This document shows, piece after piece, positions 20,492 to 60,398 of a stretch of DNA of 64,000 nucleotides (position 1 is the stretch's first letter; each line of letters opens with the position of its first letter). The notes below the pieces were generated by a model. The model was given only the letters and a program-made list of their open reading frames with translations. It was not told where the DNA came from and ran no database searches. The translations under genes and the position numbers were made by a program. Source of the DNA: a virus; IMG/VR virus record IMGVR_UViG_3300046517_002960, positions 96,001-160,000 of that record; one strand, written 5' to 3'.

Positions 20492-23400
20492 TTATCTCAC
20501 TGAGCCGTAGTACCCCCTTGAGGAAGCGCTGCCGGCCACCCCGTTCAGTGCCTGGGAGTACGCGGCCGGCGCCGCGCCCGTCAGCGCGATCAGGCGATCA
20601 AGTCTGCTGATCACCTGCATCTCGCCGGGGGTCATCCCGCCCGGGCCGATGACCCCGCCGGGCGGCACGGGCGAGACAACCTCGTTGCGCCCGGTGCCGT
20701 TGTAGGCCAAAGTGAGACCGGGAGGCAGAATGCCACCTCTGTCATACCAGCCGTAAATCGAAGCCAGGGTGGCGTACTGGGACGTACCCTGCTTCGGCAG
20801 CGGCGGCGCGTCGAACATGCTGAACGGCCTGATCGCGGTCGGGAAGCCCGTGCCGGCGGTCTGGGCGAGCTGCCCCAGCATCTGGTACACGCCTATCATC
20901 AGCGCGGGATGGCCGTGTACCAGCGCCTGGTCCTGGGTGACCCGTGCCTCCGCCCGGGCCGCGGCGATGAGGTGGCTCAGCGCGGGTGCGGACGGCACCG
21001 TGCCGGGCCTGCCCAGCGCCGCGTAAGCGGCTTCCCCGGCCCGCTGCCGGGCAGCCAGGGTGGCCAGCTCGCCCCGGATCGCGCTGCGGTTGGAGTACCA
21101 CCAGGTGCCGTGCCGGGCGTGCGCGAGCGAGTCGGCGAAGCCCTTGACGACGTGGGCGTAGTAGGTCTTCTCGGTGCTCTCATCGCTGGCCGCGTTCGCC
21201 CAGAAATCGGACAGGGACTGGGTGCCGTGCGGGGCCGGCCAGGGCGGGAACCGGTGCCCGGCCACGACGCCTCCGGACTGCAGCCGCGGCAGCACCTCGT
21301 GCGGCGGGGCCGGGATGATGGTCTCGTCGTGCCCGGTGGCGTTAACCGCTAGTGTCATCCCGGGCTTGAGCACGCCGCCCTTGTCGTACCAGTTGAACGC
21401 TCGTTCGTGTCCCCAGGCGGCAGCAGGTGAGCCGTACCTGCCGGAGATGTACGCGAGGCCCCACCGGACCTGGTTGGCGTAATCACCCAGGGCGTACGGG
21501 TGGCCGTGTCCCAGGCTGTTACCGGTCAGGTGGATGTGGCCGTTCTGCTCAGCGGTGAAGCTGCCCAGCTCGGTCGTCACGCACCAGACTTCCTGCTCGC
21601 CCGCATCCTCGTAGAAGAACCCCGGGTGCCCGACGTGCAGGGTCGGCTTGACGAACCCGATGATCAGGTTCTCAGTGCCGTACCGCTTGTCTGCGCGCTT
21701 GTAGACGCTGGGCCGGTAGCCTTCCAGGTAAACCGCCAGCCGGATGGTCTCGGCCAGCGCGCCGTCGTTCTGCGAGATCGACCGGTGGACGGTATGGCCT
21801 TCCCGCTGGTCGACCGAGCCTTCCGCCAGGAACATGGCATCCAGCCACGCCCTGCGCTGGGCGCTGGACATCGCCAGGATCATGGCGCGGTGATCCGTAT
21901 TCGGATGCCCGGCGCGCTCGGTCAGGTCCCGTGCGTACGGGGCGCTGAGCCGCCATTCCCGGTCCAGGCGCAGCTCTCCGTGCACCGTGCGCTCGCGCGT
22001 GCGGACCACGCTCCCGTGGCCTGCCAGGGCGCGCTCTATGTCCGGCCAGTTCTCCTGCTTGGTCTGGCCGATATGGAACGTGGCAGGAGAGCCGCCGTGG
22101 CGACCGGTGCCGTACTTCGGGTAGGCCTTGCGCTCCCAGCCGTCGCCGGCGACCCAGCCGAGCAGGGCAGCCTCTTCCAGGGTGATGGGCAGGCCGTCTT
22201 CCGCGTGATGCGGCTTAGCCAGGATCAGGATGCTGTCGGTCAGGCGTCCCTGGATCTCCCGCATTGACTCCCGGGGGAGCGTCGCCCGTGCGCGCTTGTC
22301 ACGCATCAGCCAGCGGTGATTCGGCGTCGTGGTGAACTCGGCCTGCGAGTTTCCGTAGCGGACCACCCGGTGCACTCCGGGATGCAGCACGGCAGTAATC
22401 CGCGTCCACTCGCTGCGCCCGGCCGCCTGGCTGTATCCGACCGTTTCATCACCGACGCGAACCTCGTCATGCTTCAGCCAGCCGCGCCGGGTCAGGACCA
22501 TCATGTCTGTGCTATAGCACTGCGGGATGCCGTAGGCCCCTGAGCTGGGGTTTACTGCCCAGGCGTTCCAGCCGCTTTCCTGGTTCCACAGGGCTTGCAG
22601 CGGCGGCCACTGATTCGCGCCCCAGCCGTACGCCCACAGGATCGAGCGGGCGAACGCCTGCGCCGCGGCAGCGGACCCGCTGTGCGGGGCGCCTGGCGCG
22701 AACCCGACGCCGCCCGGGTTCGATGCCATGGCGGCAGCCCATTTCGGCGGGATCTCGAAACCGGAGTTGCCGGCCAGCGAGGACTCGATCGTGCCGTACT
22801 GGCGGCCCAGCGCGGATAGCATCGTGGCGCCGTTGACGACGAACCCGACGTGATGCGCCGGGTTGCCGAAGAACACCATGCCGCCGGGCACCGGGCCGGA
22901 TGCCTTGCCCCACCGCTGCAGCCCGGCCGCATCAGGCCGCCCTACATTCATGCCGAACTTGTCGTACACAAAACTCACGAATCCGCTGCAGTCCCAGCCG
23001 GTGACAGGAGATGATCCGCCCCACACGTACGGCACCTTGCCCTTGAACCTCTCGGCGTAGGCCAGCACCGACTGCCCGGCGGCCGGCCCGGCCAGCATGG
23101 CCACCGCGCGGTTCGCGCTGTTCACCCCGGCCCTGATGTAGTCCTCCATGGACTTGGCCATCGCGGACGTGAAGCTGCCGTAGATCTTGTTCACGTAATC
23201 CGGGGTCAGGCCCCAGGTGCCAGCCGGGGTGCCGGGTACCGCGCCGCCCGAGGCGAATCCCGGGACGCGCATCCCGGCCGCGCCGTGCGGGGTCACCTCG
23301 ATGCCAGCCAGGCGCGGGACCCGGTCGTACAGCCCGGGGACCGGCAGCAGCGCGGGCGGCACCGCGCCCCCGGCCGCGAACCCGGGCAGCTTGCCGCGCA

Positions 23401-26400
23401 GGTGGTCGACCGCGCCGGCTTGCACCATGCGGGTGGGCACGACGACCTCGCCGGGCATCAGCAGCGCGCCTACCGAGTCGCGGCCGGGGATGCCGCCGGA
23501 GATGAACCCGCCTTCCGCGTGCGGTGACAGGAATCCGCCGGGGCTGATCGAGTAGCTTTTCCCGTCGCTGCCCTTGATGCTGAAGTTGCCGTCGCCGCGC
23601 ATGCTAACCTGCAGGCTGGTGTGCGCGGGCAGGTTGCGCAGCGCGGTGAACAGGTTGTCCGCGTTGCGCCTGCTTACGTCGATGGCGCCGGCCATCTTCT
23701 CGAAGTCGCCCATCGTCGTGCTGGCCTTGCGGCCCGCCTCCGTCAGCTTCTCCCGGCCCAGCTCCTGCCACAGCGCCGCGGCCTTGTCCCGGCTCAGGCC
23801 CAGCCCGTTGACCGCCCAGTCCACGAACTTGGCCTTGGAGTCCCTGGCAGTGAGGTTCAGCTTCGCCAGGTCCGGGCCGAACCTGGCGGTGATCTCTTTC
23901 CACAGCACGTTCGCCCTGCCGGTGGAGACGTCCAGGCCGCTGACCGCCCAGTCCGCGAATGCCTTCCTGGCATCGACGGCTGCGCCCCTGACCTCATTCA
24001 TGGCGGGCTCGAGCTGATTCGAGACCGACTTCCACAGCTGCTCAGCCTGATCGCGGGTCAGGTGCAGGGCCTCCTGCGCGAATGCCAGGAACTGCCTGTG
24101 CGCGTCGGCGGTGCTGCCGGTCAGGTTGACCAGGCTCTGGGCCAGCTGCAGTGCCGTGTCGTGGGTCCTTCTGGAGAACAGCCCGGTTTTCAGCACGGCT
24201 TCGGCGAAGCTGGTGAAGATGGCCTGGCCGCCGTTGGCGGTGATGATGGCCTGCGCCATGGCGGCGTTCAGGTTGGTGCCCAGCGCGATCGACAGGTTCT
24301 TGACGTCCTGGGTCAGGTCGGACGCGTCGGTGGTCAGCGTGGTGGTGATCTTGTCCAGGTCGTGCATCGGGTCCTTGGTCTTGCCGACCCACTTAGACAG
24401 CTCTTTGAAGCTGTTCGCGCCCTGGTACCCTCCGCGCTGCGCCAGCCCGTACAGGATGTCCGTCATCGCCTGCGAGCTCTTGGCCGCCGGCAGCATGGAC
24501 GCGACCATGTCCTTGTTGGCCTGGGCCAGCATGTCCACGCCGTCCTGGCCCTTGCCCGCCGCGTTGGCCAGCAGGGACAGGGAGTCCATCTGGGTGTTGG
24601 CCGCGTCCGCGGTGCGCAGGAACGTGTCCCGGGCCATCAGCGAGGCGGTGTTGATCCCGGTCATCGAGATCTTGCCGCCCTGCGCGGCGTCGGCCGCCAG
24701 CTTCAGGCTCATGCCGACCTTGCCGCTGGAATCGGACAGCTTGACCCCGGCCGTGGTCAGCGACTGGTACAGCCCCTCGGTCTGGGTGGCGAAGGCATTG
24801 AATCCCTGCTCGCCGCCCTCGATCGTCTTGATGAAGGTGTCCCAGCCCTGGTTCAGCTGGCCGACCTTCTCCTGCTGCTGCAGGGCCGCGAAGGTGACCG
24901 CGTTGACCGAGGCCTCCAGCTGGCCGCCGGTCCCGGTGATGTTCTGATAGCCGTTGATCAGGTTCTGCACCTTCTGGTGCATGACCGCGAAGGTGTCGTT
25001 CGCCTTGACCCCGGCCAGGTCCATCAGCGCGAACGCCTGGGAGACGCTGTACCCGTGCCGGACCAGGGAGCCGGTCTCGGCGTACAGGGTCCGGTAGGAG
25101 CCGACCAGCTTGTTCAGCTCACCGCGCAGCCTGGCCACGTCGTCCTGGATGGCCTGTTCTTTCCCGCCACCCGGCACGAACAGGTCCTTGACAGCCCGGC
25201 CGGCCGCTTTCAGGCCGTCCAGGGTGTTCCCGGAGGTGATCCCGGTGACGGCCCTGCCCCACTCAGTGCCGAATGCCTTGGCGTCGTAGCCAAGGGACCG
25301 GAGCGTGGTGCCCAGGTTGCCCCAGTTCTTGCCCTCGGCGGCCAGCAGGGCGCCGCTATCGGTCATCCGCCCGCGGAGCTCGCCGATGGCAACGGCCAGC
25401 CCGGTGGTCGCCGCCTCCGACGCTGTCATCGCCGCAGCCTGGGCCTGTACGTCCGCGATGAGGTTCTTCGTGCCGGTGTCGGTCTGGTTCATCTGGTAGA
25501 CCAGGAGGCCGATCGCGGCAGCCCCGGCGATCGCCCAGGTCCACGGGCTGGTGATCAGCGCGGCCAGCCCGGTGACCAGATTGAGCGACCCGGCTGCCGC
25601 CTTGCCCAGCGCCCCGCCCAGCAAGCCGACGTCAGTGGCGGCCTCGGCCGCGATGCCGAACTTGGAGATCCAGCCGATCAGGGACGCGATCGGGCCGATC
25701 ATCTTGACGAACATGCCGCCGAGCACAGAACCCCAGAGCCACACGCCATGCAGCGCCAGCGCGGCTGCAATCAGCGGGCCGGGCAGCTTGGAGATCACGT
25801 CCAGCACCTGCGTGGCGGCGACGAAGAACTGCAGGAAGTAGTGCGCGATCCCCGGGTCCTTGGTCAGCAGGTTGTGGATCGCCTCGGTGACGTGGCCGAC
25901 GATCTGGCCGAACTGGGCTAGGTACCCGGTCCCGCTCCTGATCATCCCGGCGAAGCTGCCCTGCTTGCCGACCCAGATGTCGATCTCGGCAACCCACCTG
26001 TCGAACAGGTCGACAACCGGCTCGAGGATTTTCTGCAGGTTCGCGGACTGGCTGTTGATGACGCCCAGGGCGCCGCCGAAGATCTCGATGCTCCGCGGCG
26101 CCATCGCTTCCATCAGGGCATCGAACTTGCCGGTCAGCGGCGGGATGTCGGCGCCCATCGCCGCAGACACGGTCCGCACGGCCTGGATCCGCACCCCGAC
26201 GTCATGCATCGACTCGGACAGCGCCGCGACCCCGGCTGCCCCGGCGATGACCGCGCCGGTCACCGCGATGATCGACTCGATGACGGCGTCCAGCGCGACG
26301 TGCCACACCTTGATCCCGCCGATGGCGCCGCCCAGGCCCCAGAATCCGCCGCCCTTGAACGCCCAGCCCTGCAGTTTCGCCCAGGCGCCCTCGGTCGCAG

Positions 26401-27626
26401 CGATCGCCGGGGTCAGGCTGTGCAGCCCGGCGGTCATCGCGGCGACCGCAGCCGCGGCGGCTGCCAGCTTCACCGGGTCCCCGCTGATGGACAGGTCGGC
26501 CAGGGTGGCTTTCAGCTTCTCGCCCCGGAGCTCCAGCGCCGCCAGCTTCGCCTCCGCGGCCGGCTCGCCTGCCAGCTCGATCTTCGCCTTAGCCAGCGCC
26601 GCGTCCAGCTTCTCGGCCCGGATCCGCAGCTCGCCCAGCGCCCTGCCCGGCGGCCCGATCGCGGTCCCGGCCAGCGAGGTGTTCAGCTTGGTCACCTCGT
26701 TGTCGATCCCGGCGATGCCGGCGGCCAGCGAGGTGACCTCCGCCATGGACAGGCCGCCCAGCCGGACCCGCTCGGCTTCAGCCCGCAGCATTCCGACTTC
26801 CGAGGTCACCGCGGCGATCTCGGCCTGGACCTCGTGAATCTGGGCCTCGTTCATCAGCCGGATGCCAGCGCCTTCCGCGCGCAGCCGCATCAGGCGGTCC
26901 TCGGCCGCGGACAGCTGGGAGAACAGCCCGGTGGTGGTGGCGGCCAGCTCGATCCGCCGCGCGTCGGATTTCAGCACGTTGATCCGGCCGACGATCACGT
27001 CCAGCTTCTTCTTCAGCTCCGTGTCCTCGATGTCGCCGGGGATCTTCTCCAGCGCCCGGCGGATCTGCTCGGCCTGGCCCTGCAGGTGCTTCAGCTCGTA
27101 CGCGGCTTCCGCGTCGTTCAGGGTCAGCTGCAGCCCGGACAGCTTGCGCTGCAGCCCGGCGGTGGCGGTGACCTCCCGGGCGATCGCCGCGTCGATCTTG
27201 CCGGTGTCCGCGCCCATCTGCAGGTTGCGCAGCTTGGTCTCCAGCCCGGACAGCTTCGCGGCTCCCTTCGCGATCGCCGCGTCCATCTTGGCCGGGTCGG
27301 CGGCCAGCTCCATGGACCGCATCTGCTTGTCCAGCAGCGCGACCTTATTCAGCAGCTTGGTCACCGCGGCGCTCATCGCCGTGTCGTCCGCGCTGAACCT
27401 GATGTTCGCGACCTTGGCGGCGGCGGCGGCCAGCTCGGCCCGCACCTTGGTCATCGCGGCGGTGACCGGCGAGGTGTCCGCGCCGATCTTGACGTCCTGC
27501 TTGGGTACGGCGGTGACGGCGGCCTTGACCTTCGCGGTCAGCTCCTGGAGGAACGAGTCAGTGTCCGGCGAGACTCGTTAAAATGACAATGAATGCCTCG
27601 CCTAGAACGCGGCCACCCGTTGCCAT
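20492..27626 (-). CDS. tape measure protein (about 2374 aa with 10-nt bypass) with NlpC/P60, intein-split lytic transglycosylase
   Basis: ATG 27626 after CAGGAGGGGGG; MATGGRVLGEAFIVI then SPDTDSF in another frame; GGFISG..RDSV..LLMPGE, PYVWGG..WDCSG, QESGWN..GAYGIPQ motifs. Confidence 0.9.
21518..22519 (-). mobile_element. intein (334 aa) with LAGLIDADG-type homing endonuclease
   Basis: IPQ|CYSTDMMVLTRRGW, TTTPNHRW block B, LLGWVAGDG and MFLAEG, VWCVTT block F, LTGN|S; removal restores GIPQSLGHG. Confidence 0.93.
27572..27581 (-). other. candidate translational bypass gap (UUAACGAGUC)
   Basis: Take-off AUU, A-site UUA, landing GUC; 8-bp hairpin AACGAGUC/GACUCGUU over the landing site. Confidence 0.7.
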
Positions 27627-27685
27627 ATCAGACCACCCCCCTCCTGATAAGAGGGGCAGCCTGACACGGAAGCGCTGGCGCCACG

Positions 27686-28084
27686 TCAGATCATGCCTTC
27701 CAGGGCGTCCAGCGCCGTGGTCATGAAGGGGTACCGGTCCCGCATCTGCACGGCGCCGTGCGGCCGGTGCTCCAGGAACACGGCCGGGAACGCCGCGACG
27801 TTGACGCCGCCGTACATCCCGCCGAGCGAGCCCGCGACGGGGCCGTGCACGTGGATCGAGCGGCGGGTGAACCCGGGCGGCAGGGCGTACCGCGCGGTGC
27901 TGGTCGCCGGGTTCCAGATGGTCGACCGCCGGGTGCCGGGGAAGACGTGCACGGTGCTGCGGGCGATGTCCGCCGCCTTCTCGTCCAGCTCGGCGATCAG
28001 CCGTCCGACCGGCCCGGCCGGGTCGCTCAGCATCGCTTCCACGTCGCCGGGGCTGATGCGGAGGCTCCCCAGGTTGCGGGGCAT
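27686..28084 (-). CDS. HK97-gp10-like neck/tail completion protein
   Basis: IARSTVHVFPG, RRSIHV, AVFLEH, RYPFMTTALDAL resemble gp10-like proteins. Confidence 0.55.
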   Translation of the reverse strand: MPRNLGSLRISPGDVEAMLSDPAGPVGRLIAELDEKAADIARSTVHVFPGTRRSTIWNPATSTARYALPPGFTRRSIHVHGPVAGSLGGMYGGVNVAAFPAVFLEHRPHGAVQMRDRYPFMTTALDALEGMI

Positions 28085-28099
28085 CTCAGCGTTCCCTGC

Positions 28100-28445
28100 T
28101 CATCGTTCCGGCCACCGGAAATCACCGTCCTCGTACAGGGTCTTGTCGTCCGGGGCCACCGGGGCTTCCGGGTCCTCGAACGCGATGCCGGCCGCCTCCT
28201 GGTGGGCGCGCAGCGCGATGACGGCGGCCTCCTCCGGGTTCTCGGCCATCCCCAGGCTGATATCCAGCTGCTCCAGCTCCTCGTCGCTCTCGCACCGGTC
28301 GGCCAGCATGGAGTACGCGACGTTGCAGGCCTGCCGCGGGGTCAGCGCCTCGAGCCCGCGCGCCGACGAGCGGAGGAGCGTGCCGTCGACCCGGCCCGCG
28401 AACCTGGCTGTCCAGGCGAGGAGCGCGACGGCTGCTCGGTAGGGC
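28100..28445 (-). CDS. tail assembly chaperone post-frameshift extension (-1 frame)
   Basis: Start-less frame ..AVALLAWTARFAG..FRWPER* entered by -1 shift near GGC CGC CCT ACC. Confidence 0.6.
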
Positions 28446-28899
28446 GGCCGGCCACCATCTCGATGACCTTGGTCACCACGTCCATCAGGTCGTCTGCGCC
28501 GGCCTTGGACTCGCAGGCGTGGTCCTCGAACGCGCGCCAGTCGCCCGCGTCGAACTCCGGGCACGCCTGGGCCGACCCGGCCTTGCAGTCCTCGCACTCC
28601 CCGCAGCCGGGGCTGCCCGGGTGGATGCAGTCCTTGAGCATGGAGTACAGCGCGCCGAGCGCCCGCGGGTCCTGCACGTTCACGTCGGCGAACGCGGAGA
28701 ACTTGAGCAACGGCATCAGGCCGATCTTCTCGGCGATGCGGAACCGCCGGCCGGCGAGCTCCACGGTCCGCTCGCTGGTGACGATCTTGTCCGCGACGAC
28801 GATCTCGGTGGGCGGTGGCGGCTCCACGCCCGCCACGGCGCCCTGGATCCCGGCGAGCTCGGCGTCGAAGTCGATGTCCAGCCCTGCTTCCTCGGACAC
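28342..28899 (-). CDS. tail assembly chaperone (pre-frameshift)
   Basis: Between major tail and tape measure genes; ends GRPT..PSRSSPG. Confidence 0.75.
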   Translation of the reverse strand: MSEEAGLDIDFDAELAGIQGAVAGVEPPPPTEIVVADKIVTSERTVELAGRRFRIAEKIGLMPLLKFSAFADVNVQDPRALGALYSMLKDCIHPGSPGCGECEDCKAGSAQACPEFDAGDWRAFEDHACESKAGADDLMDVVTKVIEMVAGRPTEQPSRSSPGQPGSRAGSTARSSARRRAGSRR

Positions 28900-28981
28900 G
28901 GGCTGCTCCTCTCATGACGAAGGGCGCAGCTCCCCCGCGCTGCCGCGGGGGCCGTGCGTGAATGTCCGGCCGGCCGGAGAA

Positions 28982-30007
28982 TCAGGTGCCGGGCAGGCCG
29001 TAGACCGGGTAGCGCGCGATGCGGCTGGCCGCGTTCCATGTCGACTTGAGTGACACGGCTGCCGTGACACCGCCAGTGACACTGTAGTCAGGCAGAATGG
29101 TGCCGAAGAAGTACTGCGGCAGCTGTGACGGAAGCGACGACGGGTAAAGATAGAAGTTGCGCGGCAGGCCGTCAGTGGCTGATACGTACGTTTGCGTTGT
29201 AGCGGTGTCGTAGAAGCCGCTGAAGTCTCCTGAGGCGTCCGGGAGTCCTGCGACCCAGATGAGGTTCTGGTCCGATCTGTTACCTCTCGCCCCTGCGAGC
29301 GAGCGGGCCAGTCATTTCTGCTGGCCTCTGCATATCTCTATGCAGGCCGGACTGTATCTTCACCCGCGTGGGGTGCCGCGTACACAGTCTCTGAACCTTC
29401 TCGTCGGCTTGCGCCAGGCGAGCTCGGCTGCTGATTACCCCTGCTGGCTGCTTTTCGGACCGTCGCGCTCGCGCTTTCGCGCCACGCTGTGGTGCAGCCA
29501 GGTGACCCGGGCGTCCCAGCAATTCTCGCAGTTTTCACAGTAGAATCACTTCTACCGGGGGCAAACACCCATAGCAGTTACATCAACTTTCGCAACTGTA
29601 AAATTGATGCTCCAGGCGCTCAAAAACGCCATGGGACTCGCTGTTGGATTGGCGCCACCTGGGCCATCTACAGCCACATAGGCGATGCCGTTTCGCGTTC
29701 TGTTACCTCTCGCCTAAGCGAGCGGGCAGGTCGTTTCCGCCTGCCTCTGCATATCTCTATGCAGACCGGACCATATCTTCACCCGCATGGGGTGCCACGT
29801 ACATGGTCTCTGAACCTTCTCGTCGGGGCTGACCCAGGCGAGCTCGGCTGCTGATTGCCCCTGCCGGCCACTTCTCAGAACCGTCGCGCCCGGGCTTTCG
29901 CCCCACGCTGTGGTGTGACCGGGTGATGCGGGTGTTCCAGCAATTCTCGCGGTTTGCACTGAAAGATCGCTCTCTCAGGCGGCCAGCCGACCGTGAATAC
30001 GACTCAT
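28982..30007 (-). CDS. major tail protein (145 aa), exons 29990-30007, 29567-29695, 28982-29272
   Basis: Splicing gives MSRIHG+RNGIAYVAVDG...VDVTAMG+DQNLIWVAGLPDASGDFSGFYD...PGT*; GAAAGG RBS. Confidence 0.92.
29273..29566 (-). mobile_element. group I intron 2 (294 nt, no ORF)
   Basis: Same core motifs; P1 GGGU/GCCC; compensatory P7 change versus intron 1. Confidence 0.92.
29696..29989 (-). mobile_element. group I intron 1 (294 nt, no ORF)
   Basis: Exon ends U, intron ends G; P GAAUUGCUGG, Q AAUCAGCAG, R GUUCAGAGAC, S GAAGAUAUGGUCC; P1 CGGU/GCCG. Confidence 0.92.
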
Positions 30008-30191
30008 GTATCCACACCTTTCCCTGCCTGCGCAGAGATGCCGAGGCCAGCCAAGCTGGTAACAGCCGTTAGACCGGGCACCGGACTCCGCGGAACGTGA
30101 GTAACGGAGCCGGCTCCGCCATCCGTGCAGACCCTGGACCGGGGGCAGCTACGGGGCCACGGCAGCTATCAGGAGTAACGATAACGCAGTC

Positions 30192-30526
30192 AGTTTGTGG
30201 ACAATGAGAGCATGAGCGATCCCGGCACGGAAAGGTGGCTGCCGCTGCCCGGGTACGCGGGTTTTACGAAGTGAGCGATCAGGGCCGCGTGTACTCCCTG
30301 CCCAGGGCGGCGACACGCGGGGGCCTGCTCAGGCTGTCCGTAAATTCCCGCGGTTACCGGCACGCGGCGCTGTGCAAGTACGGCCGGGTGCGCGTCATCC
30401 CGGCCGGGCGCCTGGTCCTGATGACGTTTGACCGCCCGCCGCGGCCCGGCGAGCGGGCGCTGCACGGCCCCGGCGGGCCGGGAGATGACAGCCGGGCCAA
30501 CCTGCGGTGGGGGTAGTTTGTGGACA
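30192..30526. repeat. 12-bp direct repeat AGTTTGTGGACA at 30192-30203 and 30515-30526
   Basis: Exact copies bracketing the NUMOD4 gene. Confidence 0.8.
30212..30516 (+). CDS. NUMOD4-HNH-type endonuclease split by a -1 frameshift (recoded or pseudogene)
   Basis: ERWLPLPGYAG + FYEVSDQGRVYSL joined at G GGT TTT; HGPGGPGDDSRANLRWG. Confidence 0.7.
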
Positions 30527-31088: not shown

Positions 31089-31523
31089 TCAGGCAGCTTC
31101 CGCCTCATCGCAATCGCATCTCCCTGTGCGCGCCTGCGCCAGGCGGCAGTTGGCGCACAGGACCCGCCAGCCGGGCGGCCAGCCCTGCTTGCGAAGCTGG
31201 AACGCCCGGGGGAACCCGCCGCCGCTATCGCTGCCCGGTTTGTCCCGGCCCGTGCTCACCAGCATGAGCACCACGGCCCGGGACGTGCCGCAGCACTCGC
31301 ACTGGCTGTCGCCGTACACGGCCAGGGCCTCGGCGACGACTTTGGACTGGTAGGTGGCGCACCGCTCGGCGTTGCACGTGCTGCACGCCGCCGCCCGGCC
31401 GTCCTTCGCCCGCTTGTTCACCGGGAAGTCGTCTTCGAGATCCTTGACCAGCCCGCAGCCAGAGCAGCGCTTCATCCCCTCCGGCACCGGCCCGGCTGCG
31501 GCGGTATCCGTGACATCGGGCAT
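31089..31523 (-). CDS. zinc-finger HNH-like protein
   Basis: CSGC..CSTC, CECCG, LCANC. Confidence 0.65.
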   Translation of the reverse strand: MPDVTDTAAAGPVPEGMKRCSGCGLVKDLEDDFPVNKRAKDGRAAACSTCNAERCATYQSKVVAEALAVYGDSQCECCGTSRAVVLMLVSTGRDKPGSDSGGGFPRAFQLRKQGWPPGWRVLCANCRLAQARTGRCDCDEAEAA

Positions 31524-54256: not shown

Positions 54257-54329
54257 GGGGCTGTAGCTCAGCTGGGAGAGCGTCTGCGTGGCACGCAGAA
54301 GGCCAGGGGTTCAAGTCCCCTTAGCTCCA
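54257..54329 (+). tRNA. tRNA-Ala(GGC)
   Basis: G3:U70; loop GT-GGC-AC. Confidence 0.9.
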
Positions 54330-54423
54330 CGCGGAGAGATCAGGGTGCAAGGTAGCGCGCCGTCGATGGAGGGCGGCGATGCTCCTGGGCAGCGGCCTGG
54401 CCGCGGACCACCCTTGCAGGCAC

Positions 54424-54496
54424 GGGGCTAGGGCGCGGCTGGTAGCGCAACTCGTTCGCACTGAGAAGGTGAGGGGTTCGAATCCCCTTAGCTCCA
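54424..54496 (+). tRNA. tRNA-Ala(CGC)
   Basis: G3:U70; loop TT-CGC-AC. Confidence 0.85.
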
Positions 54497-54500
54497 CAAT

Positions 54501-54571
54501 CCAGGGAGATCCGGGGATCGCGTCCCGGCAGGGGTCCTGGTGCCCCTGTAGCTCAAGTGCAGAGCGCCTGG
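54501..54571 (+). ncRNA. circularly permuted tRNA-like element 1
   Basis: CCAGG, T-like arm, closed acceptor CAGGGGT/GCCCCTG, D arm GCTC/GAGC, CCTGG. Confidence 0.6.
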
Positions 54572-54578
54572 AGTACAA

Positions 54579-54650
54579 CGGGACCGAGGAAGGCGGAAAT
54601 CCGCCTCGTTCGGGGCGAGGAGAAGCCGGGTTCAACTCCCGGGGTCCCGA
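54579..54650 (+). tRNA. tRNA-Pro(CGG)
   Basis: C1:G72, A73; loop TT-CGG-GG. Confidence 0.85.
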
Positions 54651-54666
54651 CTATGCTTTCGATTTA

Positions 54667-54741
54667 CGGGCTGTAGCTCAGTTTGGTCAGAGCATCCGGC
54701 TGGGGGCCGGGAGGCCGCCGTTTCAAATACGGCCAGCCCGA
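54667..54741 (+). tRNA. tRNA-Pro(GGG)
   Basis: Loop CT-GGG-GG; U53:A61 in place of G:C. Confidence 0.88.
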
Positions 54742-54744
54742 CGA

Positions 54745-54816
54745 GGAGGAAGACGCGGTTCGAATCCGCCTGGCGGCTGAGAATGCCAACGGTAGCTCAA
54801 TGGTAGAGCACCCTCC
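54745..54816 (+). ncRNA. circularly permuted tRNA-like element 2
   Basis: GGAGG, GCGG-TTCGAAT-CCGC, closed imperfect acceptor, TAGCTCAATGGTAGAGCA, CCTCC. Confidence 0.65.
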
Positions 54817-54819
54817 GTA

Positions 54820-54892
54820 CGGGGCGTAGCGCAGTTGGCCGCGCGCCTGATTTGGGATCAGGAGGACGTCAGTTCGAGCCTGGCCGCCCCGA
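54820..54892 (+). tRNA. tRNA-Pro(TGG)
   Basis: Loop TT-TGG-GA. Confidence 0.9.
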
Positions 54893-54900
54893 CTGCACGA

Positions 54901-54975
54901 GGTCACCTAGCTGAGACGGATTAGCGGCTGCCTGAAAAGCAGCAGAGGCAGGGTCGCTACCTGCGGTGACCACCA
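54901..54975 (+). tRNA. tRNA-Phe(GAA), atypical T loop
   Basis: Loop CT-GAA-AA; T loop GTCGCTA; encoded CCA. Confidence 0.82.
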
Positions 54976-55173
54976 TGGCATGACGGCGGATGGGCGCACG
55001 GGCAAACCGGGTCAGCCATCTTCCGCCTGGCCAGGCGAGTAGCGCTCCGCCTGGTAAGCCAGGCTGCTGCAGCGGCCCGGTCTCATGCCGCCCGGAGACG
55101 GGCCTGGTCACACCTGCGGTCAGCCTCGCAAGGGCGCCTGCCGGTCCCTGCTATCAGGTGGTCTCCGGGACTC

Positions 55174-55246
55174 GCGGATGAGTCCCAAACGGAAGGGTGC
55201 CGGCCCTCCAAGCCGGCTGCTGCGGGTTCGAGTCCCGTCATCCGCT
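55174..55246 (+). tRNA. tRNA-Gly(TCC)
   Basis: Loop CC-TCC-AA; U73. Confidence 0.88.
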
Positions 55247-55345
55247 CACGTGGGCTGCCACCGCCTCCCTACTAGGCAGCAGCTGGCCCGGCATACGCGG
55301 AGTGACCCCAGCCGGGGAATAACTGGTCACCAGGGGAGGCACCTC

Positions 55346-55417
55346 AGTCCGGTAGCTCAGCGGCAGAGCGGCGGGCTCTTAACCCGCGCGGCCTCGGTTC
55401 GATCCCGAGTCGGACTA
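55346..55417 (+). tRNA. tRNA-Lys(CTT)
   Basis: Loop CT-CTT-AA. Confidence 0.9.
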
Positions 55418-55605
55418 CGCAATGGGGGGCTTGTACTGCGGTACTGGCCTTAAACGGTGTCCCGGCTCGGCAATACGCGCGTGTTGCCCTGCACCTGGAG
55501 CGCCCCGCCGTGCCCTGTGCAGGGGCACGAGAACCCGCAGGGACCGTGCGTCAGCTGCGGGCGCCAACGGCTGGCTCGCACGGCCGGCCGGCGGCACTGC
55601 ACGAC

Positions 55606-55693
55606 GGGCGGGTGGCGCAGCAGGATGACGCACCGGATTCAAGTCCCGGCGTCCGTAAGGACATTGAGGGTTCAACTCCCTCCTCGCCCACCA
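55606..55693 (+). tRNA. tRNA-Leu(CAA)
   Basis: Long variable arm; loop TT-CAA-GT; CCA. Confidence 0.88.
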
Positions 55694-55718
55694 TTCTCCG
55701 GTCAGCCGGAGAATTCCA

Positions 55719-55793
55719 TGCGGTATGGGGGAACTGGCAGACCCGCCGGGCTCTGAACCCGGAGTTTTCCTGGTTCGAAGCCAGGTACCGCAG
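55719..55793 (+). tRNA. tRNA-Gln(CTG)
   Basis: U1:A72; loop CT-CTG-AA. Confidence 0.9.
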
Positions 55794-55890
55794 CTGGAGT
55801 TGCTGGATAGCGCATGGGCAAGGCGCTTAGAGCTGGCCAGCTACCCGTTCGATTCGGGAACGGCAACTCCGCACAAGGTGTCCGGCGATT

Positions 55891-55936
55891 TCGCGTAGGA
55901 GCCGTCCAGCCTTTAACTGGATCGGGGCAACGCGAG
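55891..55936 (+). ncRNA. armless hairpin carrying a Lys(UUU)-type anticodon stem-loop
   Basis: TCGCGT/ACGCGA outer stem; TCCAG-CCTTTAA-CTGGA. Confidence 0.45.
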
Positions 55937-55940
55937 CAGT

Positions 55941-56015
55941 GCCCCGGTAGCTCAGGTCGGCCAGAGCGACGGCTTCGTAACCCGTGGGTCCCCAGTTCGA
56001 TTCTGGGTCGGGGCT
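55941..56015 (+). tRNA. tRNA-Thr(CGT)
   Basis: Loop TT-CGT-AA. Confidence 0.87.
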
Positions 56016-56088
56016 CTGTGCCGGTGCTGGCCTCAATAAGCCGGGCCTTCGGGTCACGCGCCCAACCGGGCTGGTACCGGCACTTCAC

Positions 56089-56174
56089 GTCCGGGTGATG
56101 GAATCGGAAGACGTGCTAGCTTGAGGAGCTGGTGCCCCGGAAGGGGCGTGCGGGTTCAAGTCCCGCCTCGGACA
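56089..56174 (+). tRNA. tRNA-Leu(GAG)
   Basis: Long variable arm; loop TT-GAG-GA. Confidence 0.9.
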
Positions 56175-56176
56175 CA

Positions 56177-56253
56177 GGGGAAGCAGTAGCTTAACGGACA
56201 GAGCACGGCTGATCACCGACTGGTGAGGGGTTCGAGTCCCTTCCTGCTCCCCC
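56177..56253 (+). ncRNA. non-canonical tRNA-like RNA with GAT loop
   Basis: About 9-bp bulged acceptor, 3-bp anticodon stem CGG-CTGATCA-CCG, 6-bp T stem with TTCGAGT. Confidence 0.55.
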
Positions 56254-56257
56254 GTTC

Positions 56258-56332
56258 GCCGGCCTAGCTCATCGCAGGCAGAGCGTCCGCCTTGTAAGCG
56301 GAGGGTGGCCGGTTTGAGCCCGGCGGCCGGCT
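56258..56332 (+). tRNA. tRNA-Thr(TGT)
   Basis: Loop CT-TGT-AA; T loop TTTGAGC. Confidence 0.88.
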
Positions 56333-56336
56333 CCGG

Positions 56337-56409
56337 TGGGGACTGGGGTAACTGGCAGCCCGCCGGCCTTTGAAGCCGCGTAGTGCCCGTCCGAATCGGG
56401 CGTCCCCAG
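56337..56409 (+). tRNA. tRNA-Gln(TTG)
   Basis: U1:A72; loop CT-TTG-AA; T loop TCCGAAT. Confidence 0.85.
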
Positions 56410-56418
56410 CAATAACAC

Positions 56419-56492
56419 GCCCCGGTAGCTCAGCCGGTAGATGCGTCGGCATGGTAAGCCGAAGGTCCGCGGTTCAAATCCGCGTCGGGGCT
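56419..56492 (+). tRNA. tRNA-Thr(GGT)
   Basis: Loop AT-GGT-AA. Confidence 0.87.
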
Positions 56493-56493
56493 C

Positions 56494-56839
56494 GAGCCGG
56501 CCGGACGGCCGCGGTACCTGCACGTCAGGTACTGAGGAAAGTCCGGGCTCCAACGGGCAGGACGGTTGTTAACGGCAACCCGGGGCAACCCGCGGGAAAG
56601 CGTCACAGAAAGCAGACCGCCCCGGCGACGGGGTAAGGGTGAAACGGCGGTGTAAGAGACCACCAGCGGACCGGGTGACCGGCCCGGCTCGGCAAGCCCC
56701 GTCCGGAGCAAGATCGCAAGGCCGAGGGCGGCCCGCCCGCTGACGCCTGGTGGATCGCACGAGCTCGCCGGCGACGGCAGGCCTAGATGGATGGCCGTCC
56801 CCCTGCGGCGGGGACAGAACCCGGCTTACAGGCCGGCTC
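56494..56839 (+). ncRNA. rnpB: RNase P RNA (bacterial type A)
   Basis: P1 GAGCCGGCC/GGCCGGCTC; GAGGAAAGTCC and AGAACCCGGCTTA P4 signatures; ACAGAAA, GGGTGAAA, GGTGTAAGAG, GAGCAAG. Confidence 0.95.
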
Positions 56840-56905
56840 AATGCCCGCTCCCCGGAGCGGATGTGCGGCGTAAGACCCGGCCGGCCGCGCGGCCCGGGCA
56901 GTCAT

Positions 56906-56978
56906 GCGGACGTGGCGCAGCTGGTAGCGCACGTGCTTGCCAAGCATGAGGTCGCGGGTTCAAATCCCGTCGTCCGCT
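56906..56978 (+). tRNA. tRNA-Gly(GCC)
   Basis: Loop TT-GCC-AA. Confidence 0.92.
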
Positions 56979-57050
56979 CTGAGATCACGCGGGATACTGG
57001 AGTGGCCCTGTCTGAACCGCATCCGCGAACAGCGATCGCCGTGATCTCGC

Positions 57051-57134
57051 GCCCCGCTGGCGAAGCTGGAAGACGCGCACGGTTCAGGACCGTGTGTCCG
57101 TGAGGACGGGAGGGTTCAAATCCCTCGTGGGGCA
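57051..57134 (+). tRNA. tRNA-Leu(CAG)
   Basis: Long variable arm; loop TT-CAG-GA. Confidence 0.92.
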
Positions 57135-57139
57135 CTTCA

Positions 57140-57230
57140 GGAGGGTTGGCCCGGAGCTGGCGTACTGGGACCGCACTGCTAATGCGGCAGTCTGGAGACA
57201 GGCTCGCGAGTTCGATTCTCGCACCTTCCG
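57140..57230 (+). tRNA. tRNA-Ser(GCT)
   Basis: Long variable arm; loop CT-GCT-AA; G73. Confidence 0.9.
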
Positions 57231-57386
57231 CGAGCAGGACAGGCTCTCCCCGCTGGCGGGCAGGTTACCCGCAGGGAGAGCCGGCCGGCGGCGGTAATCG
57301 GCCACCCCACCTGCCCTAGACGCTCTCCGGAATCCGCACCGGGAAGCGCCAAGCCCGGCGTCCCGGGCACTGCAGATTCTACCCCT

Positions 57387-57477
57387 GGAGGGTTCGCCTA
57401 GTGGCCTATGGCGCCGGCCCGGAAAGCCGGTTGGGACGAAAGTACCCTCGCGAGTTCGACTCTCGCACCCTCCGCCA
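57387..57477 (+). tRNA. tRNA-Ser(GGA)
   Basis: Loop CC-GGA-AA; CCA. Confidence 0.88.
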
Positions 57478-57512
57478 GCCTGGCCGTCCGGAGAATGGCG
57501 GCTGGGCCTGCT

Positions 57513-57599
57513 GGAGGATTCGCCTAGCGGCCAGGGCAGCCGATTTGAAACCGGCCAGGGGTCTTGCAGCCCTCGCGAGTTCGAGTCTCGCATCCTCCG
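57513..57599 (+). tRNA. tRNA-Ser(TGA)
   Basis: Loop TT-TGA-AA; G73. Confidence 0.9.
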
Positions 57600-57603
57600 C
57601 CCG

Positions 57604-57691
57604 GGAGGGTTCGCCTAGTGGCCTATGGCGCCGGCTTCGAAACCCGGTTGGGACGAAAGTACCCTCGCGAGTTCGACTCTCGCACCCTCCG
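57604..57691 (+). tRNA. tRNA-Ser(CGA)
   Basis: Loop TT-CGA-AA; body matches Ser(GGA). Confidence 0.9.
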
Positions 57692-57713
57692 CTTCACACC
57701 GTGCTTCACACAT

Positions 57714-57791
57714 GGGCCGGCAGCGTAGCCCGGTTCTCGCAGCTGGCTGATAACCAGTTTGGCGGAGGTTCAAATCCTCCCCGGCCCACCA
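57714..57791 (+). tRNA. tRNA-Ile(GAT)
   Basis: Loop CT-GAT-AA; CCA. Confidence 0.88.
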
Positions 57792-57792
57792 T

Positions 57793-57869
57793 GGCGAGAT
57801 AGCTCAGGCTGGCAGAGCGCCGGACTCATACCCCGGAGGTCGGGATCTCGGTATTCCCTCTCGCTACCA
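57793..57869 (+). tRNA. tRNA(CAT), elongator Met or Ile2, atypical T arm
   Basis: Loop CT-CAT-AC; T loop lacks TTC; CCA. Confidence 0.75.
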
Positions 57870-57948
57870 CGGCCCGTAGTTCAGCCTGGCTTAGAACGGC
57901 ACCCTTATGAAGTGTGCGTCAGGGGTTCAAATCCCCTCGGGCCCACCA
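57870..57948 (+). tRNA. tRNA-Ile(TAT)
   Basis: Loop CT-TAT-GA; C1xC72; CCA. Confidence 0.8.
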
Positions 57949-57949
57949 T

Positions 57950-58525
57950 TCAGGAAGCACCGGCTAGCGGCACCTGCCGGGCGTTCCAGGCGCTGACGGC
58001 GGACAGCGTGAACCCGTCCGTGATCTCCCCGGCAGCGATCATCGCGGTGAGCCCGGAAAAGGTCAGCCACCGGATCTCGGTGATCTCCTCGGTGTCGGCC
58101 GGCACGGCCTGCATGGCCGCGGCACCTACCCGGGCCGCGTACATGTGCACCGCGGTCCCGAGGTGCGCGGAGTCCGGATGGACGCAGCCCAGGAATACCA
58201 GGTCCAGGGCCGCGGCGCCGATCTCCTCGATCAGCTCGGCGCGGGCGGTGGTCTCAGGGCAGGGGCCGTGCGCGTAGCCGCGGGGGAAGCCCCATTCCCA
58301 TTCCTGGGTGGCGTAACGCCAGGTCCGGACCAGGGCGGTATGCTCGCCGGTCACCGGCATGACGACCACGCCGGGATGGCCGCTCCCGGAGATGATGCGG
58401 TAGTAGCGGCCCTGCCGTCCGGAGGAGAACCGGACGTGATCATCAAATACGGTGACGAACCGGTTCCGGTAGACGATCTCCTCGGCGATTCTCTCGATCG
58501 GCGGCGCGCTGGCAGGTGCAGTCAT
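57950..58525 (-). CDS. Nudix hydrolase (NudF-like)
   Basis: WGFPRG..ETTARAELIEEIG Nudix box. Confidence 0.88.
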   Translation of the reverse strand: MTAPASAPPIERIAEEIVYRNRFVTVFDDHVRFSSGRQGRYYRIISGSGHPGVVVMPVTGEHTALVRTWRYATQEWEWGFPRGYAHGPCPETTARAELIEEIGAAALDLVFLGCVHPDSAHLGTAVHMYAARVGAAAMQAVPADTEEITEIRWLTFSGLTAMIAAGEITDGFTLSAVSAWNARQVPLAGAS

Positions 58526-58603
58526 GATCTTCCGTTCCCGCTCCCTGCCCCTGACAACGTGTCACAGCGAAGATACGTTCAGTGAGTAGCCTTATGTAAG
58601 CAG

Positions 58604-58675
58604 GGTCCGCTAGCTCAACGGCAGAGCATCCGACTTTTAATCGGCTGGTTCAGGGTTCGAGCCCCTGGTGGACCA
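58604..58675 (+). tRNA. tRNA-Lys(TTT)
   Basis: Loop CT-TTT-AA. Confidence 0.9.
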
Positions 58676-58676
58676 C

Positions 58677-58880
58677 TCAGCCCCAGGACACCATCTGCGG
58701 GGCCGGGTGCTTGGTCCAGGTGTCGGCGAGCGCCGGGTGCGCGTGCTTGGTCCAGGTGTCGGCGACGGTCGCGTGATGCGGAGCGGGCGGGGTGCCCCAG
58801 GACACCATCGCGGCACCGGAGCCCGTGGCAACGGCGGCTGCGAGGACGAGAGCGGCGATCCTGGCCTTGGCGGATTTCAT
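58677..58880 (-). CDS. 67-aa secreted peptide with internal repeats
   Basis: Signal-like N-terminus; MVSWG twice, ADTWTKH twice; GGAAGG RBS and own promoter. Confidence 0.7.
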   Translation of the reverse strand: MKSAKARIAALVLAAAVATGSGAAMVSWGTPPAPHHATVADTWTKHAHPALADTWTKHPAPQMVSWG

Positions 58881-58918
58881 AGCGTTACCTTCCCCGTTAC
58901 TAGGTGTTCTCATAACTG

Positions 58919-58946
58919 AGCGTACAGACCGGTCACAGCGTGTCAA
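58919..58946 (-). promoter_or_regulatory. promoter for the repeat peptide gene
   Basis: TTGACA-N16-TACGCT on the minus strand. Confidence 0.55.
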
Positions 58947-58950
58947 TAGC

Positions 58951-58979
58951 TTGCGCGGCACTTTCCGTAGCCGTAAGGT
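58951..58979 (+). promoter_or_regulatory. promoter for the second tRNA block
   Basis: TTGCGC-N17-TAAGGT, 8 nt before tRNA-Arg(TCT). Confidence 0.6.
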
Positions 58980-58987
58980 GACAGGAT

Positions 58988-59060
58988 GCGCCTGTAGCTC
59001 AAGGGGATAGAGTCTCGCCTTCTAAGCGAGGGGATGGGGGTTCGATGCCTCCCGGGCGCG
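58988..59060 (+). tRNA. tRNA-Arg(TCT)
   Basis: Loop CT-TCT-AA. Confidence 0.88.
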
Positions 59061-59191
59061 CTGGGGACCCCGGCCTGCGAGGCGGCCCGTGAGCCGTCGC
59101 CGGCAGATCCGGCACCGGGGTCCTCAACTAGTCTCAGCTGAGATATCGCGTAGTAGCCTCTTGAGACATCGGTCATTGCTATACTGAAAAC

Positions 59192-59686
59192 ATGACCATG
59201 CCCACGCCGCACTTCTGCGACTGTGGATGTGGTGAGAAAACAGCTGTTGCCCCGAGGAATAATACGAAGCGGGGATACGTCAAGGGCTTGTCGTTCCGGT
59301 TCGTCGGACGGCATCATGCCTGGAAAGGCGACGAGGCCAGCTATCGTGTCTTGCACACAGCTCTGAACCTGCACTACCCGAAGTCAGGCGTGTGCGAGGA
59401 GTGCGGCGCGGAAGCAGAGACCGAGTACTCACTGATTCATGGCCGTCAAGTGTCTCGGCGGCGCGAGGATTACAGGGAGCTCTGCAAACCCTGTCACCAT
59501 GGTTACGACACGGGCGGGGAGCGCAGCCTGAACGCTAAGCTGACGGAAGCGAACGTGCGTGATCTCAGAGTGCGCTTCGATGACGGGCAAGGCGAGCCTA
59601 TTGAAGTTCTTGCTCGCGAGTACGGCGTTTCTCCCGCGGCGGCTTACCGGGCTGCGACGCGCAAGTCCTGGCGTCACGTCGCTTGA
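59192..59686 (+). CDS. free-standing homing-endonuclease-like protein (Zn knuckle, HNH-like core, HTH), leaderless
   Basis: CDCGCG, YRVLH, CEECG, LCKPCH, KLTEANVRDLR; TGC-TATACT 7 nt before ATG. Confidence 0.8.
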   Translation: MTMPTPHFCDCGCGEKTAVAPRNNTKRGYVKGLSFRFVGRHHAWKGDEASYRVLHTALNLHYPKSGVCEECGAEAETEYSLIHGRQVSRRREDYRELCKPCHHGYDTGGERSLNAKLTEANVRDLRVRFDDGQGEPIEVLAREYGVSPAAAYRAATRKSWRHVA

Positions 59687-59722
59687 CGGATGTACCTGAA
59701 GATTGCTTCTGAACGCTTACAT

Positions 59723-59800
59723 GGTCCTGCAGGCCAGCCAGGAGTGGCCGTCTGCCCCTCAAGCAGGAGATCGCGGGTTCGAATCCCGCCAGGACTACCA
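59723..59800 (+). tRNA. tRNA-Glu(CTC)
   Basis: Loop CC-CTC-AA; CCA. Confidence 0.88.
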
Positions 59801-59801
59801 T

Positions 59802-59876
59802 GGCCCCATAGTGCTAGCGGTCCAGGCCGCCTGCCTTTCAAGCAGGAGATCACGGGTTCGAATCCCGTTGGGGCTA
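59802..59876 (+). tRNA. tRNA-Glu(TTC)
   Basis: Loop CT-TTC-AA. Confidence 0.88.
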
Positions 59877-59890
59877 CGGTGTAAATGCGA

Positions 59891-59962
59891 CGCGGAGGGT
59901 GCTAGGTCAACCAGCCAGGCTCATAACCTCGGCAAACGCGGGTTCAAATCCCGCCTCCGCTA
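59891..59962 (+). tRNA. initiator-like tRNA-fMet(CAT)
   Basis: C1xU72 mismatch, CGCGG 5' end; loop CT-CAT-AA; only two of three G:C pairs. Confidence 0.8.
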
Positions 59963-59966
59963 CTAA

Positions 59967-60037
59967 GGTGCCCTGGAGCGTTTCCGGCTGACTACCGGTC
60001 GTCGCCCCGGGTTCGTCGCCGGGATCAGGGCACCCCA
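59967..60037 (+). ncRNA. D-armless tRNA-Val(GAC)-like RNA with 9-bp acceptor
   Basis: GGTGCCCTG/CAGGGCACC then CCA; CCGG-CTGACTA-CCGG; T-like arm. Confidence 0.55.
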
Positions 60038-60038
60038 G

Positions 60039-60110
60039 TCCCCCATAGCTCAATGGCAGTAGCGCCCGGCCGTTAACCGGTGGATCTTGGTTCGAGTCCA
60101 GGTGGGGGAG
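60039..60110 (+). tRNA. tRNA-Asn(GTT)
   Basis: U1:A72, G73; loop CC-GTT-AA. Confidence 0.88.
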
Positions 60111-60123
60111 CGCAGAAACACAA

Positions 60124-60197
60124 GGTGGCGTAACTCAGCAGGTCAGAGTGCTGGACTGTCTATCCGGAAGTCGCGGGTTCGAATCCCGTCGTCACCG
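60124..60197 (+). tRNA. tRNA-Asp(GTC)
   Basis: Loop CT-GTC-TA; G73. Confidence 0.9.
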
Positions 60198-60384: not shown

Positions 60385-60398
60385 CGCAGTACCAGCAA

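Follow-up and report, generated by a model that had tools for sequence, protein, structure and literature searches.

The gene described here, the only one of this phage for a major tail (tail-tube) protein, very probably is split by two small group I introns and lies on the minus strand of a 64,000-nucleotide (nt) stretch of viral DNA (the window), bases 96001-160000 of the 190,216-bp IMG/VR virus record IMGVR_UViG_3300046517_002960. The source is an uncultured, high-GC, siphovirus-like soil phage, classed by IMG/VR as a provirus, and every sequence compared in this work is a metagenome assembly. An original prediction, made from the letters of the DNA, held that excision of 29696-29989 and 29273-29566 rebuilds a 145-residue protein, that the two inserts are each 294 nt long, follow a GGT glycine codon and end in G, and that exon 1 has only six codons. 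All of these points held, and the gene can be set out as follows (loci in related phages are numbered with the letter L).

29990-30007, minus strand: exon 1 of the tail-tube gene, ATG plus five codons, the last being GGT (Gly6); matches the N-terminus of uninterrupted homologues.
29696-29989, minus strand: intron 1 (site A), 294 nt, predicted group I by Rfam score, structure counts and P1 pairing, no open reading frame (ORF) of its own; guide GCCG at 29980-29983, in-frame TGA at 29975-29977, terminal G at 29696.
29567-29695, minus strand: exon 2, 43 codons (residues 7-49), the last being GGT (Gly49).
29273-29566, minus strand: intron 2 (site E), 294 nt, predicted group I by Rfam score, no ORF of its own, 90% identical to the site-E intron of L284; guide GCCC at 29559-29562, in-frame TAG at 29552-29554, terminal G at 29273.
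28982-29272, minus strand: exon 3, 96 codons and the stop, with homologues in databases.

When the three exons (30007-29990, 29695-29567 and 29272-28982) are joined, they give a 145-residue frame closed by a stop codon, and the predicted product aligns with zero gaps to the uninterrupted homologues P0006, P0011, P0020 and P0024. This alignment fixes both junctions, the first between HG and RNG and the second between MG and DQN. Exon 3 alone found 694 homologous proteins at E <= 0.001, many of them uninterrupted and 144-152 residues long, and its relatives are encoded in 106 of the 116 viral and 119 of the 302 metagenome stretches. A search for intron-less alleles in related phages had been proposed as a check on the prediction; 127 intron-less full-length copies were counted, 77 of them distinct. 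They include the closest relative fetched, a 42.8-kb Joint Genome Institute contig (L285) with 97% protein identity, whose gene runs uninterrupted across both sites. Public gene calls of 98-121 residues in this family are truncated, owing to an intron, a frameshift or a GTG start codon. The INPHARED phage collection, searched with both DNA and protein, gave zero matches, and thus no cultured relative is at hand.

The product is, from its modelled fold, its family matches and its gene order, a tail-tube (major tail) protein, as had been proposed. Homologue P0006 matches the PHROG family phrog_10528 ('major tail protein') over nearly its whole length (E 2.4e-7). A profile search over 1.84 billion representatives returned 364 relatives, and distant members of the family match Pfam Phage_tail_2 (E 5.7e-11) as well as Phage_TTP_16 and Phage_TTP_11. 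Pfam searches with the single exons and with P0006 gave no match, nor did a sequence search of the PDB with the family profile. The structure was modelled on P0006, which is 93% identical over exon 3, rather than on the spliced product; the AlphaFold confidence score (pLDDT) was 33 with 40 close homologues and rose to 88 once distant representatives were added. Foldseek comparisons place this model near the tube proteins of monocin, 80alpha, the Rhodobacter gene transfer agent and lambda, at template modelling (TM) scores of 0.72-0.78; the range becomes 0.70-0.78 when the tube protein of SPP1 is included. The tube protein of Staphylococcus phage 812, which we take to be a relative of phage Twort (discussed below), was also among the fold matches. 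Furthermore, the gene lies between a head-tail adaptor gene upstream and, downstream, ORFs in the chaperone position and a tape measure gene, an order that supports the tail-tube assignment. No sheath gene was seen, and for this reason the phage looks siphovirus-like.

Fold and coding content of the inserts

Another proposed check was a comparison with the Rfam group I model, RF00028, which has a curated gathering score of 50. This model matched both inserts on the minus strand over its full length, with 55.6 bits at 29747-30011 (intron 1) and 54.7 bits at 29328-29612 (intron 2), and a scan of the entire 190,216-bp record returned these two matches only. Similarly, when the record was searched with a divergent (type-2) intron of the same family from L005, only the shared ends of introns 1 and 2 were found, and no further copy.

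Nine family members were aligned, and the secondary structure drawn manually on them contains P2, P3, P4, P5 with an extension, P6, P7, P8, P9, P9.1 and P9.2; a GAAA loop caps the P5 extension, and P3 and P7 cross to form the pseudoknot. An RNAalifold drawing was set aside, as it had P3 wrong and misaligned P1 of the site-E introns, and all pairs were therefore counted on the hand-drawn structure. Across the nine members, 98.6% of the cells are standard pairs, and 33 of the 79 pairs are changed on both sides. None of 500 shuffles reached the observed values, and sliding the partners by 1-3 columns reduced pairing to 29-38%, so the pairing pattern is far above chance. Between introns 1 and 2 themselves, two adjacent pairs of P7 are altered on both sides, in line with the compensatory change in this helix that had been noted at the outset. 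The predicted P1 with a U-G pair at the splice site was also recovered, as a helix of 4 bp in each of the two introns, and the terminal G is present in introns 1 and 2 and in every related intron. The J8/7 and P7 consensus, together with the absence of P7.1 and P7.2, may point to an IC-like subgroup.

The comparisons thus show, at the level of sequence, that both inserts fold as group I introns with exact junctions, and that they belong to one family; self-splicing itself would be expected. The frames found within introns 1 and 2 are only structure-spanning ORFs of 76-86 residues in GC-rich sequence, and they were not searched against family libraries. We judge these frames to be spurious and the introns to lack a homing endonuclease of their own, so that the ORF-less character originally ascribed to them probably stands.

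Production of the tube protein would depend on splicing, as the original prediction also held. Each of the two introns carries an in-frame stop four codons beyond its 5' splice site, and unspliced RNA, as read from the sequence, would yield only a 10-residue peptide. The same feature recurs across the family: an in-frame stop lies 0-8 sense codons past the 5' splice site in all 14 introns tabulated below. In the site-A copies (n=7), the first loop is 6, 9 or 12 nt long, always a multiple of three, so that the frame still runs into the TGA at the start of P2. Such stops are described in many bacterial and phage group I introns, where interference between translation and ribozyme folding has been discussed (PMC3984707). 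By analogy, the stops in this family may release ribosomes before they reach the catalytic core.

Insertion sites, guides and relatedness of the introns

We examined loci encoding relatives of the tube protein, 80 of them viral and 80 from metagenomes, three contigs obtained by exact protein look-up, and loci found through the intron core motif, and read the splice junctions against intron-less alleles. In fourteen distinct loci the tail-tube gene is interrupted by a member of this family, with two introns only in the window. The introns occupy six sites, all within codons 6-49, and at each site the last four exon bases can be set beside the matching intron guide:

Site A, after codon 6: exon end CGGU, guide GCCG; intron 1 and the introns of L005, L049, L266, L157, L168 and L154.
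Site B, after codon 33: exon end CGAU, guide GUCG; L054.
Site C1, inside codon 39: exon end UCGU, guide GCGA; L059.
Site C2, inside codon 40: exon end CGGU, guide GCCG; L207.
Site D, inside codon 43: exon end AGGU, guide GCCU; L006, L204 and L205.
Site E, after codon 49: exon end GGGU, guide GCCC; intron 2 and the intron of L284.

Pairing was tabulated for 14 introns from 13 of the 14 loci, the partial copy in L204 being left out. The guide is a stretch of 4 nt that, in every copy, is followed at once by an invariant CC and then the P2 hairpin; it pairs with the last four exon bases, with a U-G pair at the splice site in each pairing. Direct scoring gave four P1 pairs in 13 of the 14 introns; for the remaining one, in L049, the pattern match had taken the wrong 4-mer (three pairs), and the alignment places the guide at GCCG, with four pairs. 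There are five guide variants over the six sites, as sites A and C2 have an identical exon end and an identical guide, and each of the base changes between guides (n=5) is in the direction needed for pairing. Polymorphism of the insertion site and covariation of guide and site are therefore shown in these sequences. At site A, codon 6 is GGT in all carriers, and in intron-less alleles it is GGC (40), GGT (16), GGG (14) or GGA (7). The tube proteins of the site-A carriers are only 59-75% identical to that of the phage studied here, which argues that site A is old, very mobile, or both.

Close to site B, the tail-tube genes of three relatives contain 7-8 extra bases led by TTA, at codons 31-35 (L020, at about 2947-2954; L026, at about 2951-2957; L049, at about 2939-2945). 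These extra bases adjoin the intron site, and the reading frame resumes exactly after them.

The original prediction saw the two inserts as siblings, of which one had spread to a second site in the same gene, possibly by reverse splicing. At the level of the phage group, spread to further sites is upheld by the six sites and their matched guides. As a recent event inside this genome it is not: the two introns are no recent duplication here, given their core identity of 83%, the copy in L284 that is closer to intron 2, and the intron-less gene of L285. Over their whole length, introns 1 and 2 are 81% identical, with 83% both beyond the first 30 nt and in the core, and about 50% in P1-P2. Intron 2 is closer to the site-E intron of L284, with 90% identity in the core and 97% in P1-P2, and shares 88% with the site-D introns. 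Intron 1, in turn, has a P9 region that matches the one in the site-E intron of L284 at 96% identity, and a P1-P2 that resembles the copies at sites A and C1. The P1-P2 modules of the family fall into three types, one at sites A, C1 and C2, one at sites B and D, and one at site E. From these comparisons the family is a mosaic, in which the two copies do not look like fresh duplicates; most likely they were acquired, or exchanged by recombination, independently.

A further kind of intron was seen in L005 (2602-2871) and L207 (562-836). These type-2 introns have the P1-P2 of the family and its P7'-P9.2 end, with a different P3-P8 core that RF00028 did not detect and that, by eye, has a short P5 and a long P8. 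Their composition suggests an exchange of modules between introns. The family also extends beyond the tail-tube gene: its core motif occurs in at least 119 viral stretches and, judged from these sequences, it is common in the late structural genes of related high-GC soil phages. For example, in L132 (1692-4033, minus strand) at least four copies interrupt a major head protein gene (phrog_1357) over a length of 2.3 kb, and L185, L125, L147 and L182 are among the high-GC viral contigs with 3-6 copies within 1-3 kb.

Routes of spread and the neighbouring genes

In the mechanism that we favour, each intron would fold after transcription into P1, P2, P3-P8 with the extended P5, P9, P9.1 and P9.2. 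The last four exon bases, which end in U, would pair with the 4-nt guide that lies two bases before P2, and splicing initiated by guanosine would join the exons exactly, so that protein would be made from spliced mRNA only, with the in-frame stop freeing ribosomes ahead of the catalytic core. New sites would arise by ectopic insertion directed by the guide, after which each occupied allele would spread at the DNA level. We are confident, although short of certain, that two ORF-less introns of one family, most likely acquired separately, split the tube gene of this phage. That the new sites were reached by ectopic, guide-dependent insertion is a real possibility, at best evenly balanced, and spread of an occupied site between phages by homologous recombination is what would ordinarily be expected. 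More tentatively, the gene family may record transposition of an ORF-less intron by reverse splicing within a protein-coding gene, with six sites within 130 nt and with guides and stops matched to them.

The signature expected of reverse splicing is present, in the form of precise insertion after U, a 4-nt match, and a guide used twice, at sites whose exon ends are identical. The route first suggested for the second site would fit the six sites and their guides; mobility by reverse splicing in general lacks direct experimental support, the best circumstantial evidence coming from ribosomal DNA (rDNA) (PMC3984707).

Several observations weigh against the mechanism as set out above. P1 is short, at 4-5 pairs, and we found no convincing P10, only weak candidates. 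The introns of sites D and E have cores with 90% identity, but in their P1-P2 modules the figure is only about 40%; retargeting thus took more than a point change or two in the guide. The maximum-likelihood tree of the intron cores is star-like and gives no order of events. The tail-tube gene also carries small lesions without TTA in L284 (a 2-nt insertion at about 2721-2724) and L286 (a 1-nt deletion at about 2978), which may be assembly errors or real frameshifts. Finally, given the provirus classing and the metagenome assembly, the phage could in principle be defective.

The genes that flank the tail-tube gene bear on the alternatives and are as follows.

31089-31523, minus strand: Cys-rich ORF of 144 residues, HNH/endonuclease VII-like (phrog_2255, E 1e-10; phrog_1035, endonuclease VII, E 1.8e-8).
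30212-30516, plus strand: NUMOD4/HNH-like small ORF (Pfam NUMOD4, E 3.7e-8; PHROG HNH endonuclease, E 1e-18), transcribed away from the tail gene.
20492-28899, minus strand: downstream tail module, consisting of two candidate chaperone ORFs and the tape measure gene.
28342-28899 and 27686-28084, minus strand: candidate tail assembly chaperone ORFs, assigned from position only, with no family match in PHROG or Pfam.
20492-27454, minus strand: tape measure gene, 2320 residues, matching PHROG tape-measure families and Pfam NlpC/P60.

A different explanation of the six sites, which we consider rather unlikely, is that they arose at the DNA level, through a free-standing homing endonuclease acting in trans or through breaks and recombination; selection on an essential gene would then have kept only precise insertions that a guide could pair with, and homologous recombination would have spread the alleles. 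Two nuclease-like genes do lie just upstream (30212-30516 and 31089-31523), and there is a precedent in cyanophage S-PM2, where the Endo VII-type nuclease F-CphI stands beside an ORF-less psbA intron (PMC6083498, PMC3984707). However, neither gene follows the introns; the nuclease-like neighbours occur in related loci both with and without them. A link between the NUMOD4 gene and intron presence was rejected, as this ORF is found in 89 related loci irrespective of introns; its HNH motif is cut short, and a frameshift is needed to read it. The Cys-rich ORF, about 1.1 kb upstream of the tail gene, was found in L022, L284, L285 and L286 only; two of these four loci are intron-less, and a third (L286) is intron-less but frameshifted. 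Moreover, the 129 nt between sites A and E are more than a single nuclease site can span, and the common exon end and guide of sites A and C2 are what an RNA-guided step predicts.

The distribution of the sites is an argument for a DNA-level origin. All six lie in the first 34% of the gene, and only about 41% of the matching 4-mers lie in the first 35%, a chance of roughly 0.005 under a simple model; this clustering would fit a local hot spot for breaks. The TTA-led extra bases and small frameshifts of relatives, at codons 31-40, point the same way, as does base composition. Just upstream of site E, third-position GC is 0.45 and 0.47 in the two site-E carriers and 0.86 in the intron-less L285. 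In the present phage, it is 0.45 over codons 28-49 against 0.81 +/- 0.12 in intron-less alleles, and 0.45 in the exon parts next to the introns (29567-29695 and 29990-30007) against 0.72-0.81. The signal is clear for the two site-E carriers and mixed at other sites, in a comparison that left out the site-A introns of L157, L168 and L154. The low third-position GC beside the introns hints weakly at a co-conversion tract; it could stem from a different donor through co-conversion, or from selection that keeps the exon weakly structured close to P1.

Regulation is a further possibility, the original prediction having suggested that splicing could time tail synthesis: the introns would have been co-opted so that the need for two splicing events, or the skipping of the exon between them, controls when or how much tube protein is made. 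In Twort orf142, group I introns are reported to skip exons (PMC11878797, citing Landthaler and Shub 1999); here, exon 2 is 129 nt long, so that its loss would preserve the frame, and three of the four guide bases of intron 2 can pair with the last bases of exon 1. We nevertheless regard this role as improbable. Both introns are dispensable, being absent from the nearest relative and from 77 distinct alleles, and the occupied sites differ between phages, which is the pattern of a selfish element and not of a conserved regulator. Furthermore, with residues 7-49 missing, three strands would drop out of the predicted tube fold. Least probable of all, and in our view very much so, is that the inserts are decayed, non-splicing introns in a tail pseudogene of a defective prophage: the provirus class and the frameshifts in the tail-tube gene of some relatives would agree with it, but both introns score above the Rfam cut-off with all helices kept and with compensatory differences, the exons are undamaged and keep their frame, at 97% identity to an allele without interruptions, and the guides still match their own exons.

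Some features of the neighbourhood deserve mention in their own right. The NUMOD4/HNH-like ORF starts (ATG at 30212) in one frame and continues in another, and a -1 shift on G GGT TTT (30259-30265) would join the two; the same arrangement is seen in L285 and L205, and the ORF is uninterrupted in L013, L022 and L006. This frame break could represent programmed frameshifting, transcriptional slippage or shared decay. A GC-rich hairpin of 8 bp (28932-28951, minus strand) lies about 30 nt past the tail-tube stop and before the chaperone gene, with no T run after it. Residues 1866-1932 of the tape measure protein give a weak match to LAGLIDADG_3 (E 3.4e-4, just under the Pfam cut-off), which may be the remnant of an intein or endonuclease. 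Further away, an array of about 37 tRNA genes (54257-61546) includes, at 56493-56844 (plus strand), a complete RNase P RNA of bacterial class A (261 bits); an RNase P RNA carried by a phage would be unusual.

Comparison with known introns

Introns in phage structural genes are already known, as is the presence of several in one tail-tube gene, and the bare finding is thus not new. The closest parallel is orf142 of Twort, which, according to PMC11878797 (citing Landthaler and Shub 1999), encodes a tail-tube protein and contains three self-splicing group I introns with exon skipping. As in Twort, the host gene is a tail-tube gene of about 140 codons with several small group I introns, and splicing would be needed for a highly expressed late structural protein. 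However, Twort is a low-GC myovirus and the present phage a high-GC, siphovirus-like soil phage, with two introns rather than three. The intron family is different too, without insertions of the P7.1/P7.2 type in the hand-drawn fold; splicing is predicted here from the DNA, and related phages of this group show six alternative sites.

Group I-like introns have also been described in virion structural genes of the Cluster J mycobacteriophages, in the capsid gene of LittleE and in a minor tail gene of BAKA and Optimus, with splicing shown by reverse transcription PCR (PMC3706429). They are actinobacteriophages and, as here, their exons end in U and their introns in G. The BAKA intron is 265 bp long and has no endonuclease gene, a related segment is present in two genes, and free-standing HNH genes are many. 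In Cluster J, however, there is one intron per gene, in capsid and minor tail genes and not in the tube gene, and no series of alternative sites and guides is described. The Jug huge gut phages carry an average of 18.5 short, ORF-less introns per genome, of about 206 nt (PMC12880540), and resemble the present case in their many short group I introns, in essential genes that lie in two or three pieces, and in abundant free-standing nucleases. They belong to another phage group with other hosts, mainly terL, nrdD and DNA polymerase genes are hit, and the record studied here has two introns only.

Related introns at different sites of one gene, with circumstantial evidence for how they came there, are otherwise familiar from nuclear rDNA, where sites for reverse splicing need only 4-6 bases complementary to the guide (PMC1299323, PMC3984707). 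In contrast to rDNA, the phage gene that hosts the introns here codes for a protein, its six sites are packed into 130 nt, and the intron brings an in-frame stop with it. The collaborative homing of S-PM2 psbA and F-CphI (PMC6083498, PMC3984707) shares with this locus an ORF-less intron and an adjacent nuclease-like gene, one of them here Endo VII-like; it differs in that the nuclease-like neighbours here do not track intron presence. In the literature searched, we found no earlier description of a six-site series with matching guides.

In summary, the tail-tube gene of this group of phages is invisible to ORF callers, and intron-aware gene calling is needed to recover it. One intron family at six sites in a short stretch of an essential gene also provides a compact and testable system for the study of mobility by reverse splicing. 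If guide-directed insertion is indeed how these sites were reached, the tail-tube introns would be the clearest circumstantial series outside rDNA for a pathway that has long been proposed and never demonstrated.

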